Below are positions 1 through 11,340 of a stretch of 64,000 nt of DNA, piece by piece. Below the pieces are notes generated by a model. That model was not told where the DNA came from. It saw only the letters and a list, made by a program, of their open reading frames with translations, and made no database searches. The DNA lies in NCBI GenBank assembly GCA_965113315.1, contig OZ220365.1; one strand, written 5' to 3'. Position 1 is the stretch's first letter. Each line of letters starts with the position of its first letter. The stretch comes from Podarcis vaucheri (lineage: Eukaryota). The position numbers and the translations under genes are program-made.

Positions 1-964
1 TTGCAGATCAGGTGGCAGATCTGGAGCCTGAGGAGGGCGCTGTGCCCCTGCCTCCACCACTGCCACACCCCTACGGCTGGTGCGTGCTGCTGCAGTGGCT
101 GTCTTTCCTGCTGCTGTTTGTGAAGGCTGCTGTGAAGTGGGTGCACTTAGAGCAAAGGGCCTAACTTGGCAACGATGGCAGCAGTATAGGGCATGCCCAG
201 CAGTGGGGTGTGTGACAGCAGCGTGGCATGTCCATGGAGGAAGAGGAGGGGGCATGGCATGCCCGTGGCAGAGGAGGTTGAGGGGCGGTGGTTGTTTGTT
301 TGGAGGTTTTTTTGCCTCAAGCACCAATACCTCCTGGGTCAGCCCTGACCCCCACAGCTTCTCTGGGGAGAGTCTTGCTACTGTAATAGACTGAACACTT
401 TCCATCTTGATTGTGGAAATACCTACTGATTGAGGAGGATCCACAGAGAATCCACTTCACAATAGATATTCTTTTTGTGCCTACGTTTAAAGAGATGCTT
501 GGGAAGCATCACACAGACAAAATGGATCCCTTCAATTTTCTCTTACCTTATAATAGTTGTGTTTGAGGCTACAGTTGTTACAACAGTACTGTATATTACT
601 TTAATCCTTACATTCTATTCTTAAAGAGGAGGATGAGTTTGATCCTGTCTCTGCCTTTCCCAGAGGCACTACTTTTCATTATGATGGTTTTATTGTGCCC
701 AGACACACACTATTACTTGGCACATTACCATCTAGCTCCATTGCACTTTAAAATTCCTAATATATCTATCAGTTTATCATCACGGTTTACCGGAATGTGT
801 GGATTGAACTCTTAATAACAACCCTCTCCTTTTTTATTTTACACAAAATACAAGATAGTTTCATTATTCTTTGTTTTTGAAGCAATGAGAATTCATGAAA
901 ATCCCGAGACGATATCCAGATCTTTTCACTTCTGCAGTAAATGCTTTTCTGGTTTTTGAAACAG

Positions 965-1427
965 GGTTGCAAAACTGCGAGATGACCTTATGGCCTTAAG
1001 AGCAGAGTGCTCCTCAATCTACAGCAAGGGGAGGACACTGACTACAGAACAGACCAAGATGATGATATCAGGAATAACACAAAGCTTAAACTCAGGATTT
1101 GCACCAAACTTCAGCCCCAGCTTAAACTCTGGACTGAGCCAGGGCTTATCACCCTCCTTGACATCATCGAGTCTAACATCAGGTTTATCATCGGGTCTTT
1201 CTTCAAGAATGACTCCAGCCATCACCCCAGCATACACCCCAGGTTTCCCACCACGGTTAATTCAAAGCTACATAACAGGAGTTGACTCTGGTGCACTGCA
1301 AACACTCAAATTGATGCAGATCCGAAAACCTCTGATGAAATCGGCATTTATCGATCAGAATTTAACAGAGGAGGAAGTCAACATGAAGTTTGTTCAGGAT
1401 CTTCTCAGATGGGTAGATGAAATGCAG
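965..1427 (+). CDS. DST: Dystonin exon, plakin region with Ser/Gly/Thr/Pro-rich linker ([17 protein letters not shown]...DEMQ)
   Basis: acag|G acceptor, CAG|gtaac donor; translation closely matches remembered human DST/BPAG1 (ALRNECSSVYSKGR...[15 protein letters not shown]). Confidence 0.95.
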
Positions 1428-1533
1428 GTAACATCTTTACATGTACATTTTTTAAAAAAAATTCAGACTGTGCCTGATCATTTTCCTCACCCGCTTGAGG
1501 GCTCGACTTTAATTTTCAACTTCTGCTTTCAAG

Positions 1534-1662
1534 GTGCAACTTGATCGAGCTGAATGGGGTTCGGATTTGCCAAGCGTTGAAAGCCATTTAGAAAATCACA
1601 AGAATGTCCACAAAGCTATTGAAGAATTTGAGTCAAGCCTTAAAGAAGCAAAAATCAGTGAG
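1534..1662 (+). CDS. DST: Dystonin exon ([43 protein letters not shown])
   Basis: aag|GTG ... GAG|gtaca; 129 bp, phase 0/0; plakin WGxDLPSVE motif. Confidence 0.95.
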
Positions 1663-1788
1663 GTACAGCTTTGGGGGTGGGGAGTGTTGTGGTTATATTA
1701 AGTGTGCAGGGATTTTGTATATTAAGCAGCATATAAAAATTAGAAATATACCATATACCCCACATATACACATGTGTGCAATGTGCTT

Positions 1789-1793
<5 letters not shown>

Positions 1794-1848
<55 letters not shown>
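1794..1848. repeat. (TA)n microsatellite, resuming at 2101-2120
   Basis: Direct reading. Confidence 0.95.
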
Positions 1849-1851
<3 letters not shown>

Positions 1852-2100
1852 GGTTTTGGTGTCTTCGGGTGTCTTCCCGTGTAAGAGTCGGGGTGTCTGT
1901 GCGACGTTTCGACGAGGTCTCACTCGTCATCTTCAGGCTGGTGCTTTCGGCTTCTTGTTAAGAAGCCGAAAGCACCAGCCTGAAGATGACGAGTGAGACC
2001 TCGTCGAAACGTCGCACAGACACCCCGACTCTTACACGGGAAGACACCCGAAGTCACCAAAACCTGCATTCCTGTACCCGTGAAAATCTACGAAAGCAAA
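1847..2100. mobile_element. Penelope-like element terminal fragment: inverted pseudo-LTR pair plus 31-nt tail, inserted in (TA)n
   Basis: Arms 1847-1956 and 1960-2069 are reverse complements with one mismatch; CpG-rich; hammerhead-like core in each arm; TA repeats on both sides. Confidence 0.7.
1980..2013 (+). ncRNA. Minimal type-I hammerhead-ribozyme-like motif (mirror copy on - strand at 1903-1936)
   Basis: CTGAAGA-T-GACGAG[TGAGAC]CTCGTC-GAAA-CGTC: CUGANGA box, 6-bp stem II, GAAA box; helix I and III support is weak. Confidence 0.55.
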
Positions 2101-2151
2101 TATATATATATATATATATATTTTTTCTTTGAACCAATTTGTTCTTTACAG

Positions 2152-2229
2152 ATCCAGATGACTGCTCCCCTTAAACTCAGCTATGCAGACAAATTGCACA
2201 AACTGGAGAGCCAATATGCAAAACTCTTG
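2152..2229 (+). CDS. DST: Dystonin exon ([26 protein letters not shown])
   Basis: cag|ATC ... TTG|gtaag; 78 bp in frame. Confidence 0.95.
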
Positions 2230-2335
2230 GTAAGATTGCTGATTGGCAGTCCCACCTTTTATTTGGTTGCCACTTTGATGACAAAAGGTTTAAAGTAAAA
2301 AAAAATAATGGATTTCTTTTACTATCTTTTTCAAG

Positions 2336-2497
2336 AACACCTCAAGAAATCAGGAAAGACACCTTGATACCCTTCACAATTTTGTATCTCGCGCTACCAG
2401 AGAACTCATATGGTTGAATGAGAAAGAAGAGGAGGAGGTTGCATATGACTGGAGTGAAAGAAATACAAATATAGCACGGAAAAAGGACTACCATGCA
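2336..2497 (+). CDS. DST: Dystonin exon ([43 protein letters not shown]...DYHA)
   Basis: aag|AAC ... GCA|gtaag; 162 bp; plakin [12 protein letters not shown] motif. Confidence 0.95.
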
Positions 2498-2600
2498 GTA
2501 AGCATTGTTAAAATAGTCAAAAATAAGTATTGAATGTGACCTTTTTTTTTTTTTTAATTTGCTCCTGGCTTCTAAAGCTAATTGTCTTTTTATTTGGAAG

Positions 2601-2705
2601 GAACTGATGAGAGAACTTGATCAGAAGGAAGAAATTATCAAATCTGTTCAGGAAATAGCAGAACAATTGCTATTTGAAAACCACCCTGCAAGGCTAACTA
2701 TTGAG
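2601..2705 (+). CDS. DST: Dystonin exon ([35 protein letters not shown])
   Basis: aag|GAA ... GAG|gtagg; 105 bp. Confidence 0.95.
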
Positions 2706-3005
2706 GTAGGTTGTTAAACATAACTTAGGAATAGAAACAGAGTCTCTCAAGGCTCTTTTTATGGGCTGCTGAAACAGAATATAGACTTGTTTTCTGGGTG
2801 CAGTCTGTAGTCCCCATGCTTCATTTCCAGAAAATGTTCAGTAAAATAAGACTATTTGATTTCACAGTCAGGCTCTACATAGACATGTCATAAACCCACT
2901 GCCCCAATTGTACAACGGGGAGGGGGTTATAGCTTGGTTGGCTTTGCTCTTGTTTTTGATCATGTATTTTGTGCTTTTATATTGAAGGGTGGTATACAGT
3001 GCAAC

Positions 3006-3007
<2 letters not shown>

Positions 3008-3042
<35 letters not shown>
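3008..3042. repeat. (TAA)n microsatellite
   Basis: Direct reading. Confidence 0.95.
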
Positions 3043-3044
<2 letters not shown>

Positions 3045-3916
3045 GGAAAAATGAGAAATTGACAGAAACTGAAACAGACAGATTCATCAATCCCTACATG
3101 CATTTGTTGCAGTGTATTGCAGTTCACAAAAGCTTATGTCAGAACAAATGTGTTTATCTTTAAAGTGCAACAGCATACACTTAATTTTGACATGACATGA
3201 CAATGACATGAAATAAATGGGACCACAACAAAATGTAGCAGTTGTGGAGGGCTGCTGTTCCAAGGGCTGGCCAGCCATACATTCTTGCCAGTTCCAGTGT
3301 TCAGCCAGCCAACCATACCCTGTTGCAAGATACTCCATTTCTTTCCATTCCTTTCCTTCTCCTCCTTGGCCCCATCCCAGATTTCTGTTGTTAATGCTTT
3401 TGTCCATCAGACACTCAGCCTTAGACACTTTACTGAGAGCTATGTTACATCAGTTCCCATTAATATTCCAGTGAGGCTGAGTTTTGTAACCTGCGACAGG
3501 GCAGTGGTTCTGTGTTTTCATTTGACATGGAACTTCTGTTTCATTACATTGCTTCCATTTAAGGTGTGAAGTTCAGGCACTTGCTGTTGCTCATAAACTC
3601 CAGATATTGTTTGGACATTGAATTTATTTCAGACTGGCATCATGTCGTGTGCCTACAATGTGTGACTTGATTCTAGTCCAAAATGCATCTAACGTCCAAA
3701 CAACACCTGGAAATTTATGAGTGCTTCTGTTTTGGTTTTAAAATGCATGCTAACTACCACAGGTGCCTTCAGACTTCCAAATGTGATCACACGGTTGTCA
3801 GTTAGGAAACTAGGATGTGTACAAAGCAGATAGTCATGCAGGGTTTGTGCTCTGAAGCAATAAGGCTTTAATGCAAGAAGATAAGCTCTATGATATTTTC
3901 AGGCTATTAAGCAGTA

Positions 3917-4147
3917 CAGTGGTACCTCGGGTTACATACGCTTCAGGTTACATATACTGAAGGTTACAGACTCCACTAACCCAGAAATAGTGCTTCAGGT
4001 TAAGAACTTTGCTTCAGTATGAGAACAGAAACCGTGCTCCGGCGGCAGGAGGCCCCATTAGCTAAAGTGGTGCTTCAGGTTAAGAACAGTTTCAGGTTAA
4101 GTACAGACCTCCGGAACGAAATAAGTACTTAACCTGAGGTACCGCTG
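3917..4147. mobile_element. Tc1/mariner(pogo/Tigger)-type MITE, family A copy 1
   Basis: TIRs CAGTGGTACCTCGGGTTA / TAACCTGAGGTACCGCTG, TA on both flanks; internal TTCAGGTTAAG repeats; homologous copies at 48754 and 56919. Confidence 0.85.
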
Positions 4148-5112
4148 TACTGTTGGGGCTGATGCTGCAAGGGTTGTTTCTATGTAAATTAATACTAGAT
4201 ATATCCTATTGGTACCTCCTAAAAAGTTTGCATTTATAGACAAATTCAGACAGCATTCAGATGTCACAGTGCACCATCATTTATCTAGAGAAGGAACTAG
4301 CTGGAACAAATCTTGGACCTACACACTTCCTCTTCCACCTCTGTGGAGAGCTATGAGGAGATTGGAAACTTTCACTTTTGATTAACCACAATTTAGTCTG
4401 ATGTCTGAGCCCTAGACGGAAGTTAACTTTTAACTATGGTTTGATGACATAAGGTAGCTTGATGACTCCATGATTTGTGCTCGACTTGTTTCAAACAAGC
4501 CATGGGAAAGGTTAGCTCCAGGTGGAACGATAAGCTGCAAGTAATAAAAAAAAGAAGAGAAAGCTTTCAGAAACCTTCTTGCAGCTACAGCAGAGGTGGA
4601 GAGGTGAGGGGGGAGCGTGCAAGCTTTATTGTGGCTTGTTTTCATAATGCTAAAACAGATCAATTTCACTATCTGTAGGGTATTTAGCAAATTGAGTTGA
4701 AATACGTCTTCTAACAGAGAACAAGGCACCCACTGGTTTCCATGGGAGATGCTTGGGGAGAATTCTAAATCTAAAGTATTTAGAGCAGCCTCTGCTGGCC
4801 AACAGTATTACTGTTCTACCATAGCAGGGATAGAGCAAATACTGCATTCAAGAAATTCAAGTTATAAATAACAGTTATTCTAATAAGTAAATTGTTCAGA
4901 GAGTTTTATTGCTTTTTGTAGAGAAATGCACTTGATCTTTTCAGAGGCTGGTGTGATTTCTTTTCCTACTGTTATAACAAGTCGAAGGCATTTGAGTAGG
5001 AAAATTGGGCAGGGGGGGGGGCTTCAATTCCTCAAATCTCCCCCCTTCCTCATTTGAATTGCTTCTGTTGCACAGCAAAACATGACTTCTTTCCTCTGCC
5101 TGTATCCCTAAG

Positions 5113-5208
5113 GCCTACCGAGCTGCAATGCAAACACAGTGGAGCTGGATTTTGCAGCTTTGCCAATGTGTTGAACAGCATCTGAGAGAAAACACTGCAT
5201 ATTTTGAG
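5113..5208 (+). CDS. DST: Dystonin exon ([32 protein letters not shown])
   Basis: aag|GCC ... GAG|gtacg; 96 bp; plakin AMQTQWSW motif. Confidence 0.95.
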
Positions 5209-6103
5209 GTACGTAACACATGGGTATTATTGTAGAGTAACCACAGATTTAACTCTTAACAGCAGCAAGAAGAAAAGGATTTTTAAATGCTTTTTTATGC
5301 CAAATAATAGCATATTGACCCTCAGTAAATCTAAAGCTGAATTTTCACATTTCACAGGACTTCCTATTTTACGACTGCAGATGTCTGTAAAAAGTGCTGT
5401 TCTGCTTTTATTATGAGTTTTGTTGCATATTTTTTCAGAGTGGATGTGAACTAAAGGGCTTAAGCTACTTTTTTTCACACCAATATTTTCATGTGGTTCA
5501 AATGGGCCAAGAAATTGAGTAACCTTTCCCACTTGGTTTTAGAAGCAATTATTATTTTGCTGCATGTTCTGAATTCTCCATTCAAACAATACAAACCACA
5601 CCACAATCATCAATGAGGAAAAACATCTGTGAGTGGAGGGAGAGGGACAGGAAAGGAAAGAAGAAACTTACCCAGGTTGCACTGGAAAGAAAGTCCTTGT
5701 ACAGGAATTATTATTTTTCCCAACTGCAAAGAAGTAATGCATATACAGCTCATTAAAGGGGTACCCAGTTAACTTCATAAGTATCTAGTAGGCATTGCAG
5801 ACTGTTGTAAGCAGCATGTTTGAAGGCAGAGAGAGTTGTTAACTTTGCAGCCCAGTTGGTAAAGAGGACTGGTGGTTTTATCCCCTTTGGTGCTGGGATA
5901 CCCTGGGGTGAATGGGCTCATTTAGTTTTCTAACTGATTTTAGAAACTTACCGGTATGTCTCCTTCATCTAATAAGAAAGTATACCACACTCTTGGATTA
6001 TCAGCCTGGGCTTCAGACTGCTGTACTGACTACTCTCTTGAGGACAGAGCTTGCAATGGTGTATTTTTTAAATCAAAAGTGGTTGTTGTTTTTTTCATTT
6101 TAG

Positions 6104-6229
6104 TTTTTCAACGATGCCAAAGAGGCCATAGATTACTTGAAGAATTTAAGAGATGCTGTTCATCGAAAATACAGCTGTGATAGGTCCAGCAGTATTCATA
6201 AACTGGAAGATCTGATCCAAGAGTCGATG
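6104..6229 (+). CDS. DST: Dystonin exon ([42 protein letters not shown])
   Basis: tag|TTT ... ATG|gtagg; 126 bp. Confidence 0.95.
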
Positions 6230-7130
6230 GTAGGTATCTTCCATACATACTCGGCTAAAGCCATTTGTGCTCTACTAGCAGAGTACTAAAGGTAGACAGT
6301 TAACCCAAAAGTAAAGGAAATCTCATCACAAATTGTTCTTTCTTAAGGGGAACTAATTTTATCACCATTATTTTCACAATTCTGGCTTCAAAAATAATAA
6401 TTCAAGAAGCTCATTATCTTAAACAATGTCAGTGAATTATATGGATGAGATGTTTCTCATAATTCCAGATGACCGTTTTTGGCAATATTCTGTACCTTTC
6501 TGTTTCCACCACTGAAGAAGAGCAGTAATTGCAGCTCTTGATTGATTTGGGGCTTTTGGACAACCTACAGACTGGCTTTTAGTTTCAACAGATTGCACAG
6601 TGACCACAAGCCAGTAAACTGGTTAGGACATGCCCAGATATAGAAACTATCCTGTTCTTTTTATTATTATTATTAGCAACTGGCTAACAGCCAGGGAACA
6701 TCTTCAGCTTGCAAAGCATGCAGTTACATAAAATAAAAATGTAATCCTCTTCACAAACAGAATCTTAGGTCATGGACATGAATTTTTACCACTGCTTCTC
6801 AATGTGGTTGGTAAGCAGTGCACAGGAATTCAGCTCTGCCCCTCATAGCCCTTACTATTGAAAATGGGACATACATTGCTGCCCCCAATTATTTCGTGGT
6901 GAATTACACAAATGGACCATCGCCATCTAGGGCTGTTGACCTAATAAACAATGGTTGTTAGAGAGTACTAATAGCACCATAGATGCCATTCTGGTTTATG
7001 TGAACAATGCTTTGTACAATATCACAAACAGCAGAAAATATATATTTAAGTTTCAAAGAAGAACACATTTAATTTGCAGCTGCTTCTAATGTTTCCCCTC
7101 CTCTTGTTTTGTTTATAAATTGGCTTTTAG

Positions 7131-7283
7131 GAAGAGAAAGAACAGCTCCTGCAGTACAAGAACACAGTGGCTGGCCTTGTGGGGAGAGCAAAGACAATAG
7201 TTCAGCTGAAGCCGAGGAATCCAGATAATCCACTGAAAACATCCATCCCAATCAAAGCCATCTGTGACTATAGACAAATTGAG
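7131..7283 (+). CDS. DST: Dystonin exon, start of plakin SH3 ([10 protein letters not shown]...[27 protein letters not shown])
   Basis: tag|GAA ... GAG|gttgg; 153 bp; AICDY SH3 motif. Confidence 0.95.
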
Positions 7284-7547
7284 GTTGGAACCTTAGATTT
7301 CTTCAAATCAATTATGGGCAGTTAATGAAGACAGTTAATGGCATGTTCTTGGAATTCTCTTCCCTATCAAACGAAACAAGTCCCTGCCTTCCCAATTGGG
7401 GCTTAAGTTGTTGGGTCCTGCCCCCCACCCCCCAATTTTGCTCCCCTGTCACTTTCCTAGTGGCACATGTTCAAGGGAGTGCACTGTAAGAACAATATAT
7501 GTATATTAGACTCGTTCAGATTTTCTGATCTTTCTGTTGAAAACCAG

Positions 7548-7702
7548 ATAACCATTTACAGAGATGATGAATGTGTGCTGGCAAGCAACTCCCATCGGGC
7601 AAAATGGAAAGTGATTAGTCCAAGCGGTAATGAGGCCATGGTTCCCTCCGTCTGTTTTACTGTTCCTCCACCCAACAAAGAAGCAATAGACACTGCAAAC
7701 AG
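7548..7702 (+). CDS. DST: Dystonin exon, SH3 ([46 protein letters not shown]...)
   Basis: cag|ATA ... AG|gtaag; phase 0/2. Confidence 0.95.
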
Positions 7703-7879
7703 GTAAGTGCTGGCATAGCGTGCACAAAACATGGAAATCCTTATTGATCTTATTTGCCTTCCAGGAGCTTTTATATGCACAGCGTACAGGAAATTTATAA
7801 CATGTACCCTTTCGACTGCCACTTGACAAATCATTAATTTAGACTCGGTCATTCCCCACCCCCTCTTTGTGCATTTCAG

Positions 7880-8006
7880 AATTGAACAGCAATATCAGAA
7901 TGTCCTGGCCCTGTGGCATGAATCACATGTAAACATGAAGAGTGTGGTCTCCTGGCACTATTTGACAAATGAAATTGAAACTGTTCGAGCCAGTAATGTT
8001 GCTTCG
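7880..8006 (+). CDS. DST: Dystonin exon ([28 protein letters not shown]...NVAS)
   Basis: cag|A ... TCG|gtaag; phase 2/0. Confidence 0.95.
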
Positions 8007-8652
8007 GTAAGTTCTGTGCCTGTTCCAGCACTCATAACAAAATATACCTAGCCTAATATTCCATGATTCGGAAGCAGTTATCTGTAGTGGCTAAAGCTGA
8101 GTGTAGCCACGCACAGTTCCTGAATATTTGGTTCTGTAACGTGTCGTATTCCTGTGTTATATCTGTGCAACAACAGTTTGCTGGTTGCATTCAGAAGCTA
8201 TAACCTTCCTTTATGGCATGATTGGCTAAGATTGTGGGAAGCTCCATGTTTTCCATAGTGGGCATCATTGCTGAAGGTATGTCAGTGTTGTATTGGTGTT
8301 TCTTATACTAAGAACTTAAAATATGCATATGTCAATGTCTGTAAACACCCAGAGCATGTTGTGTGGTCTCATTGGAGTGTCCAGGACATTTATGTGGGTT
8401 TTTAACTTGTATGTATTTGAAAGTTGCTCATTGAAATGAGTCATTGCAATTGACTTTTCTTCTAGTTACTAAAGAGCAATTCCTCTACAGGGATCTTCCG
8501 ATGTGCTGCCCTCACAAAGCAACATGTGTATTACCTTTTTGGAACATTAAAATACTGCCTTAAGAAACTGACAAAACAGTATGTGGTTTATAAAATGGTG
8601 CCCAACATTAGAAAGACTTTAATTACCCCTCCTGATTTTTAATATTTCCTAG

Positions 8653-8836
8653 ATAAAGACACTCTTGCCAGGTGAACACCAGCAGGTTTTAAGCAACTTG
8701 CAGTCCCGCTTTGATGACTTCCTTGAAGACAGCCAGGAGTCCAAAGCCTTTTCAGTTGCTGACATTGCTCAGCTGGAAAGGGAGGTGAATGTGTGCAAGC
8801 AGTACTACCAAGAGCTCCTTAAGTCTGCAGAGAGAG
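8653..8836 (+). CDS. DST: Dystonin exon ([30 protein letters not shown]...KSAER)
   Basis: tag|ATA ... G|gtaaa; phase 0/1. Confidence 0.95.
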
Positions 8837-9154
8837 GTAAATATAGCACATCAACTGTGCAGAAGTCTCCCATACAAGATGCTTATGGTATTGACTACCC
8901 TTTCAATGTTACATATGTGAACTATACTGCTGTGGCTCTTTCACAGCGGTGCTCATTTCAGAAACAGAGAGGGAAATAGATACCAGTAGAAGACATGAGT
9001 TGGGAAAGTCCAAAGGCTCATTCTTTTTAACAGTGTCAAATGGAAAAAATGAGCAGCTTGCATGAGTATTTGTTATTTTTTCTACAGTTGCTGCTGCAGT
9101 GTTGTCAAAACAGACACACACTTTGGCATGTATGCTTTTGGCATGAATATGTAG

Positions 9155-9497
9155 TAAAAAGGTAAAAGGACCCCTGACCATTAGGTCCAGTTGTGACCGA
9201 CTCTGGGGTTGCAGTGCTCATCTTGTTTTATTGGCCGAGGGAGCCGGCATACAGCTTCCAGGTCATGTGGCCAGCAGGACTAAGCCGCTTCTGGTGAACC
9301 AGAGCAGCACACGGGAAATGCCGTTTACTTTCCCGCCGGAGCGGTACCTATTTATCTACTTGCACTTTGACGTGCTTTTGAACTGCTAGGTTGGCAGGAG
9401 CAGGGACTGAGCAACGGGAGCTCACCCCGTTGCAGGGATTTGAACTGCCGACCTTCTGATTGGCAAGTCCTAGGCTCTGTGGTTTAACCCACAGCAC
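9155..9497 (-). mobile_element. Sauria SINE (Squam1-type)
   Basis: Reverse complement has a tRNA-like head, the CCTGCCAACCTAGCAGTTC / AGTAGATAAATAGGTACCGC body and an ACCTTT-type tail; homologous to the copy at 18261. Confidence 0.88.
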
Positions 9498-11340
9498 GTA
9501 AGCAGTTACATAGGTCTAACAGTGAGCACTCAGAGCCAATTCAGACATTAAGATGTTGCTTTTCAAATAGCAGAAGAGGAAGTGTGATATTCTGTGTCCT
9601 GCGTCCCACATGGTCAGCTGACTGTAACTCTCTATACTTGTTTTTTGTCTGTATGAAATCAGTGAGCTGTCATTAACACAGATGCTCCTGAGAAAATCAC
9701 TTATAAAACGGGAAGGAAAAAGAAGAGCTGATCTCCCCATGACTCTCCTTCTGTTTGTTTTGTTGTTCATAACACTCAGAACTGATTCAAATATTGAAAT
9801 GCTATATTACAGATAAAAGAACTTGTGCCCTTGCATAATTGCTGAAAATGTAATATGTATTTTACTGGCACACAATCTGAGATCTCAATTGGGTTCCTAA
9901 AATGAGCTGGTAATAATTTGTGTGAGTAAATAGAACAATTATTTTGGCAGGTTGCACAATAAGAGGAAGAACATCTGTTACTGTTACACACAAATGTACA
10001 AGGAACATATTTTTCCTCTCAAAATAAAATACCAGGAGTATCATACCACATCACTTACATTTGTTTACTTACTGTCCTTAAAAAATAAATAAATCTGCAA
10101 GTATGTCATAAATGGACCCTATATCCTTTGGAAAAACAGTATCTGCTTAAAAGAAAGTCTTTGAAGTTCTTCCTTGCTGTTGTAAATAGTCCATCTCCAT
10201 TCTGAAAATATATGATATCACTGAGCCTTAAATGCTTCCATAAAGCTGAATAGATGTATTATATTATGCATTCAGGCTGATGCTGATATAGAAAGGAATG
10301 CAATAGCAGATGAAAGCTGATTAAAGTAAATATATAAGTACGGAGCAGAGATATACTGTGCTTGACTGTGTATCTGGAGAAAATGATAAGGGATTCATTT
10401 CTATAGATTTAATACCATCTTATTATGAAATCATCTCTGGACGAACCATAAACAATCCAATTAATCACTGTGCATACACAAATGGGATGATAATACCTAT
10501 GACTAAAGTGATGTGCATATTAGTTTTTTGGGGGATGCCCATATTTAGACATGATGATGATGATACATGGCAAGCAAGAAGTTGATTTTGTGTCCTGCTG
10601 TTATGATGTTTACATTTCTCCACTTGAGAAGATGCTCAAGGTGACCCCAATTTGTGAACTTCCACATTTCCCCTTGGGGAGAAAATCTGTTTGAAATGGG
10701 GGGGGGCGGTTTGCTAGATTTGTTTATGCTTGTTATTGCAAATGTACAGAGGTACCTTTGAAATATGATTGACTGGGGAAATTGTGAGTCTAAATTAACA
10801 ACAATCTGATCTGAAAATTTTCAAATGCATTCAAACTGGTTATTAAAATATATCTTTTTTGTGGTAAAGAACATTCTTTACTGGCTTTTGACCAATCTGA
10901 ATGGTGAAACTACATAGTGGGCAATATTCTGCCTGTTTAAAATGTATATTATTTTATGGAAAGGTGAGTTTTATATTATTTATTTATTGAATTTATATAC
11001 TGCCCTACACCTGCAGGTCTCACTATAAGTGGAGTGTAAGTTTCAGTTTTTGTATATTTTAATAGTTGTAGCAAACATATTAGCTTTTAAAAAAAGAGAG
11101 ATGGAGAACCATGGAAACAAGAATTTGAAGATATGCTTCCTCTTCTCCCTACATTGTTAGCACATCCCTTTCTCCTCTTGACCACTTTCCATTAATGTTA
11201 ATTGCACATTTCCTTTAGATGAAGCAGAGACACTGCAGACAAGGTTATAGCACTGTGACTTTAGAATATCTGTTGTGTGATGGCAGAAGAACATTAAATA
11301 TACTTGGTTTTACTTGAATTCTTCCATTTCCTTCCAACAG

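Follow-up and report, generated by a model that had tools for sequence, protein, structure and literature searches.

Opposed minimal hammerhead cores in a dystonin intron of Podarcis vaucheri: a probable head-to-head fragment of a high-copy Penelope-like element

An intron of the dystonin gene (DST) of the lizard Podarcis vaucheri most probably holds a short head-to-head fragment of a young, very high-copy Penelope-like element (PLE), at 1847-2103 of the window, by which we mean the whole stretch of 64,000 nucleotides that was analysed (contig OZ220365.1, assembly GCA_965113315.1). We put a probability of about 0.88 on this explanation, as a joint figure for all its parts. Each arm of the fragment carries a minimal hammerhead ribozyme (HHR) core, one on either strand, as an earlier note on this DNA had read from the letters; that note went on to propose that the antisense copy, being transcribed first, masks the sense copy, and that such a self-neutralising arrangement could let insertions of this kind persist in host introns. 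The opposed layout is instead likely to be a routine by-product of the way the element integrates.

Insertion and host intron

The host gene is recognised by two coding exons on the + strand that match consecutive residues of the BPAG1/dystonin chain 2iak_A in phmmer searches. The plakin-region exon of DST (dystonin/BPAG1) at 1534-1662 matches residues 41-83 (E 3.3e-21) and ends before a GT donor at 1663, and the following coding exon at 2152-2229 matches residues 84-109 (E 3.8e-10). Since the two matches abut at residues 83/84, the host is DST, the intron is 1663-2151 on the + strand (489 nt, GT..AG), and the antisense arm of the insertion is transcribed first, just as the earlier note had it. 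To our knowledge, these plakin exons are common to all DST isoforms. The polypyrimidine tract and the acceptor of the intron lie downstream of the insert, which sits within a (TA)n microsatellite whose left portion is at 1794-1848 and whose right portion is at 2100-2121. A 2,929-nt contig with another species label (X9) covers 2134-2520 and continues unbroken beyond 2134 toward the insertion site over some 2,000 letters (or 515 at the least, under the opposite reading of its coordinates), which hints at an empty insertion site there; a second contig (X7) covers the same 2134-2520, stops within about 22 letters of 2134 and is uninformative on the site. Two further runs, X2 and X3, gave no contig over 2070-2520, a negative that may be false.

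The insertion is an almost perfect hairpin with arms at 1847-1956 and 1960-2069 (110 nt, 99% complementary; fold z = -29.7). The left arm, at 1847-1960 on the - strand, is an inverted, 5'-truncated PLE end that runs from -30 to +83/84, counted from the ATG of the element's open reading frame (ORF); it is 100% identical over 114 nt to a full-length copy, L068, and forms the short end, without a tail. The right arm, at 1960-2103 on the + strand, is likewise 5'-truncated, runs from -26 to about +113/+118 and agrees with L068 at 99.3% over 144 nt, with a single private substitution at 2054. This is the long end, and the PLE 'tail' of about 30 nt (2069-2099, + strand) is found on this arm only. Base 1960 is common to both arms, a one-base overlap. 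The right arm also holds the first 39 codons of the PLE ORF (1986-2102, + strand); of these 39 residues, 38 agree with the beginning of the 906-aa ORF at L068:1706-4426.

Long duplexes are typical substrates of ADAR, and a near-perfect duplex of 110 bp lying about 50 nt upstream of an acceptor might act on the host as double-stranded RNA, through ADAR editing, DST splicing or small RNAs, rather than as a ribozyme. We consider such a role unlikely: the splice signals lie outside the insert, the copy is young and one among thousands, and editing could happen without any function. Rfam scans returned the MIR6288 miRNA precursor at 69.1 bits on both strands against a gathering score of 74, which we set aside as a generic long-hairpin match, together with TA-driven miRNA matches that are hairpin noise. 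Elsewhere in the window there are a 241-nt MITE-like element at 3912-4152, which has terminal inverted repeats of 28 nt (86%) as well as repeats in its interior, and a degenerate inverted repeat at 3599-3711 with arms of 48 nt and a complementarity of 75%.

The element family

The exact 34-nt core occurs in 11,140 copies in the 1.61-Gb genome, 5,582 on the + and 5,558 on the - strand (control 0). The full-length copy L068 (C1:2173000-2179500) consists of a 2,961-nt tandem unit, and its ORF of 906 aa starts at an ATG inside the hammerhead core. This ORF has an RVT_1 match at 358-536 (E 6.7e-15), a DKG motif at residue 282, upstream of the reverse transcriptase (RT), and at its C-terminus a GIY-YIG match at 705-744 (E 0.0011; 19.7 bits against a Pfam cut-off of 22.6), for which the copy L007 gives E 0.00059. 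The family thereby combines the features by which endonuclease-bearing (EN+) PLEs are recognised: RT and C-terminal GIY-YIG in a single ORF, the DKG motif, a tandem or inverted pLTR, 5' truncation, a one-sided tail and microsatellite or AT-rich targets. A CX2-5CxxC zinc finger in the linker that joins RT to EN is present in Neptune and Nematis and serves as a criterion for the clade in the available text of PMC8557442; no match to it was found in the 906-aa ORF, and by that criterion the element fits the Penelope/Poseidon clade, as a probable Poseidon-type PLE. A PDB search with the ORF matched only distant RTs. The sampled copies diverge from L068 by 0.6% (251 of 43,231 and 19 of 3,173 bases), a closeness that marks the family as young.

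Poseidon_Ac (PAc) of Anolis carolinensis, a member of the Penelope/Poseidon clade, allows a detailed comparison with the available text of Frangieh et al. 2024 (PMC11167929). As here, the RT is followed by a C-terminal GIY-YIG in one ORF, the ORF begins at stem II with hammerhead C3 and G8 preceding the start codon, the targets are AT-rich, and two 3' ends about 30 nt apart bound the tail, the outer one near +113-118. The two differ in the cut site, reported at 26 bp in PAc and lying 28 nt after the A of the ATG here, a comparison made by description. They also differ in that no RNA-seq reads ending at the HHR site are reported for PAc, whereas genomic 5' ends are enriched there in Podarcis.

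In L068 a pyrimidine tract ending in CAG lies at -45 to -32 before the ATG, about 30 nt upstream of the ORF, and, to judge from its letters, it might serve as acceptor for an intron in the 5' UTR, such as other PLEs have; the arms in the window start downstream of this tract, so no such acceptor was carried into DST. At L007 (C31:11.10 Mb) a truncated element is flanked by an inverted duplication of 1,646 nt (L007:1088-2733 and 5005-6632, 98.8%), of which about 1.3 kb is flank from outside the element. Either host DNA was duplicated here in inverted form in connection with a PLE, or the assembly produced the effect.

Head-to-head integration

The geometry of the family was read from 100 matches, those listed first (C1:1.1-13.7 Mb), whose loci hold 106 cores at up to 3 mismatches; the sample is one region of one contig, and the region was not chosen for genes. 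Head-to-head pairs within 4.5 kb account for 84 of the 106 cores (42 pairs), and 34 of 44 clusters have such a pair, with 8 cores standing solo. TA adjoins 96 of the 104 typed 3' ends. One arm ends at about +83 and its partner at +113-118 in 34 of 41 pairs (50% expected, p 1.3e-5), a count that omits one pair with an odd end; this combination suggests that a single event draws on both internal start sites of RT, with a different one for each strand. The copy in the window, with one short and one long end, has the same form as most of the sampled pairs.

This geometry accords with published descriptions, as far as their available text goes. Opposed minimal-HHR pairs about 100-700 bp apart have already been reported (PMC4209133), and an inverted 5'-truncated copy with a tail at one end is called typical of PLEs by Craig et al. 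2021 (PMC8557442). PLE insertions in general are said there to resemble ours in the inverted 5'-truncated copy at the 5' end, the 30-40 bp tail at one end and the microsatellite targets; they differ in that here both arms are reduced to about 110-145 nt, leaving the hairpin alone. In PAc, both strands of AT-rich DNA are described as cut and extended, with reverse transcription starting at two internal sites, one at either limit of the tail (PMC11167929).

Tandem and inverted PLE structures are reported to trouble assemblies (PMC8557442), and the hairpin might on that account be a false fold-back. We regard such an artefact as extremely improbable: the arms are unequal in their one-sided tail, in one substitution and in their 5' ends, as they are in the 34 of 41 other pairs. 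A second possibility is that the short palindrome spreads as a whole, as a non-autonomous element, given that 16 of the 42 head-to-head pairs are short palindromes and that 5 pairs share a core spacing of 104. This, too, is very unlikely. The junctions are highly diverse among the 50 loci listed, the window's spacing of 77 with its one-base overlap is not repeated among the 42 pairs, and short palindromes carry the same short and long ends as kilobase insertions, as expected if each is made anew.

In the mechanism of integration that we propose from the available account of PAc (PMC11167929) together with the end pattern here, the RT/GIY-YIG protein would cut both strands of the (TA)n site; reverse transcription would begin at internal points of the RNA, +83 for one strand and +113/118 for the other; both cDNAs would stop early, in the window copy at -30 and -26; and the two would be joined via one shared base to give a palindrome with a one-sided tail. 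The role of the hammerhead would be played in the RNA of the element itself, either in dimeric form or together with the protein that the element encodes. The sense core in DST pre-mRNA likely would not cleave alone, and the insert there would likely be an inert 110-bp hairpin that is removed with the intron.

The 5' ends of the sampled arms also cluster. A strong hot spot at -42 takes 13 of 106 arms and another at -37 takes 8, for example in L016, L070, L082, L091 and L107, and 37 of the 106 arms end between -25 and -49. A TATA-like box lies about 30-35 nt upstream of the hot spot, which, judged by this position, is possibly the transcription start of the pLTR promoter.

Hammerhead cores and their masking

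The minimal hammerhead of the right arm spans 1978-2015 on the + strand, with its core at 1980-2013 and a predicted scissile bond at 2013/2014. Its boxes are CUGANGA at 1980-1986, an extra U at 1987, GAAA at 2006-2009 and CGUC at 2010-2013, the last of which contains a palindromic CG (15.2-16.2) at 2010-2011; stem II is a perfect 6 bp (1988-1993/2000-2005). The core has the boxes of a PLE minimal hammerhead, the architecture of which is described in PMC4209133, namely CUGANGA, GAAA, an NUH triplet and a stem II with G10.1-C11.1. The core of the left arm, at 1903-1936 on the - strand and antisense in DST pre-mRNA, is an exact 34-nt match to it (0 mismatches; 0 matches in 100 shuffles), and no third copy was found in the window at up to 3 mismatches. 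The earlier reading of the boxes, the stem and the positions is thus borne out, and so is its attribution to a minimal type-I hammerhead of PLE origin.

The ATG of the PLE ORF (1986-1988) is made up of A9, the extra U and G10.1. The earlier note had taken the extra T as a caveat on activity; it is, however, the middle letter of the PLE start codon, and an extra nucleotide between 9 and 10.1 is described as a conserved feature of minimal HHRs (PMC4209133). The other caveat holds, as helix I has 2 bp only (C1979-G2014 and G1978-C2015), the next pair is A/A, and a search for a longer helix I of the right-arm core found none beyond these 2 bp. This is below the 4-5 bp that is usual in the metazoan PLE minimal hammerheads described by Cervera and de la Pena 2014 (PMC4209133), from which the window also differs in that the cores start 77 nt apart, against about 100-700 bp. 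Folding predictions give helix I a probability of at most 0.006, the isolated arm included. A variant in Penelope of D. virilis is described with a 2-bp helix I (PMC4209133), and by analogy with it splicing of an element intron could lengthen helix I. The earlier note had also proposed a comparison with the Rfam hammerhead models; no hammerhead family matched at E<=10 in window 1-10000 or in 1958-2100, as expected for a core without helix III. Rfam Hammerhead_1 and non-LTR retrozymes share the catalytic boxes and the type I order with our core, and differ from it in that here there is no Rfam hammerhead match, no tandem array and a single sense core.

That the upstream arm would sequester the sense core, as the earlier note foresaw, is reproduced by prediction. 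Equilibrium folding gives stem II a probability of 0.55-0.57 in the arm alone and 0.89-0.90 with the tail, against 0.0 in the palindrome, in the whole intron and in three nascent transcripts, and the hairpin is predicted at -235.6 versus -9.0 kcal/mol; on these models the sense core is likely buried in the hairpin. The masking is uninformative all the same, because a head-to-head pair gives antisense first whichever strand is transcribed, and about three quarters of the clusters have such a pair. There is probably little to neutralise, since a lone minimal HHR is reported not to cleave in vitro (PMC4209133), the HHR of Anolis Poseidon is reported to cleave only with the element's protein (PMC11167929), and a second sense core that might form a dimer was found neither in the window nor in the 10 kb upstream. 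Nor does a family with 0.6% divergence give a basis for claiming long persistence.

It could still be that introns preferentially retain those insertions in which an antisense arm lies upstream, a lone sense hammerhead otherwise cutting the pre-mRNA. The predicted loss of stem II and the stability of the hairpin would suit such selection, as would an excess of 5' ends at the predicted cut site, treated below, that hints at some cleavage in vivo. Tandem retrozymes are, moreover, reported as depleted from Xenopus introns (bioRxiv 10.64898/2026.07.22.740005, in the text available), which implies that a hammerhead in an intron can carry a cost where the formation of dimers is possible. We give selected self-neutralisation only a small chance, and the persistence suggested in the earlier note is not supported: the head-to-head form is the default (34 of 44 clusters), its antisense-first order follows from symmetry, a single minimal HHR is inactive in vitro and that of Poseidon requires protein, and the window and the 10 kb upstream lack a second sense copy. 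The minimal RT template of Poseidon is, in addition, described as needing the first 172 nt of the ORF, of which the window arm has about 115.

5' ends at the predicted cut site

If hammerheads cut PLE RNA before reverse transcription, truncated arms should start at +29, the base that follows the hammerhead's GUC, where RT would run off the cut template. Genome-wide patterns for 5' ends, which required three upstream mismatches, gave 68 matches for 5'-truncated arms that start at +29, against 46 at +33, 16 each at +24 and +30, 12 at +35 and 8 at +25. A null of uniform truncation that weights microhomology and allows for three types of partner, after scaling or fitting to the five controls, expects 20-26 at +29 and reproduces +33 (27-44 with TA flanks included), where starts mostly adjoin TA runs or match letters of the partner arm; this null has several free parameters for five controls. 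Starts at +29 are about 2-2.5 times the microhomology null (genome-wide; loci L109-L138 and L139-L220), with the reservation that the Poisson p-values ignore position-specific hot spots and that duplicated loci are retained in the counts. Strong microhomology weighting alone fails as the cause of the peak, which it predicts at +31 instead.

By eye, twelve pairs form symmetric palindromes in which each arm starts from +29 and the two are joined over GC, and in one further pair (L109/L110) a 10-nt spacer separates two arms that also start at +29; counting each of these 13 insertions once leaves 55-56 events. An independent profile of 92 distinct contexts, after 8 were merged as identical or at a locus edge, has 17 starts at +29, with about 7 expected and a mean of 5.0 and a maximum of 9 elsewhere (100 of 247 matches listed). 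Symmetric GC joins number 2, 1-2 and 1 at three other GC sites (50 of 75 loci listed, by eye) and 7 at +29 in the same contigs. Scaled for the capture of the patterns (about 0.42), the +29 class makes up about 1% of arms, which agrees with uncut RNA as the main template.

The +29 ends may thus be a fossil record of hammerhead cleavage of PLE RNA in vivo, with RT running off the cut template, a reading drawn from genomic end points to which we give slightly less than even odds. The excess suggests that the family's HHR is not dead in vivo. Against cleavage it counts that RT pausing where the core is folded would leave a comparable signal, and that the position -42, likewise a GC but with no ribozyme there, collects far more ends (13 of 106 arms). 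The available text of PMC11167929 reports that HHR mutants leave PAc insertion unaffected. We found no published account of 5' ends at a PLE hammerhead cut site in a search that covered few subscription journals.

The copies of this family are too alike for covariation of stem II to be read within it. A pattern that forces a different stem II matched 51 times genome-wide against 40 in a reversed control. By eye, 31 of the 51 matches form a single second family that retains the boxes and the extra T, in which stem II pairs 2-5 are changed on both sides, GC replaces CG at 15.2/16.2 and helix I has 4 bp. A PLE endonuclease match (E 1.3e-6) lies upstream in 1 of 30 fetched loci, and the second family is probably another PLE. 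Its loci include L039-L065, with head-to-head copies in L039, L051 and L052. The change of pairs 2-5 on both sides of the stem supports, by one comparison between two families only, a hammerhead fold that is kept across families.

Implications

The locus in DST is one of thousands of like insertions and adds nothing beyond published PLE biology; it does carry a warning: in head-to-head repeats, 'antisense first' comes about automatically. What hammerheads do in EN+ PLEs is described as unclear (PMC8557442, available text). If the reading of the +29 ends is true, minimal hammerheads of PLEs would cut their template in the germ line and yield dead mini-insertions. More than 11,000 near-identical young cores let the end points of cDNAs be read genome-wide, which makes cleavage in vivo and the two-primer model of integration directly testable from assemblies.
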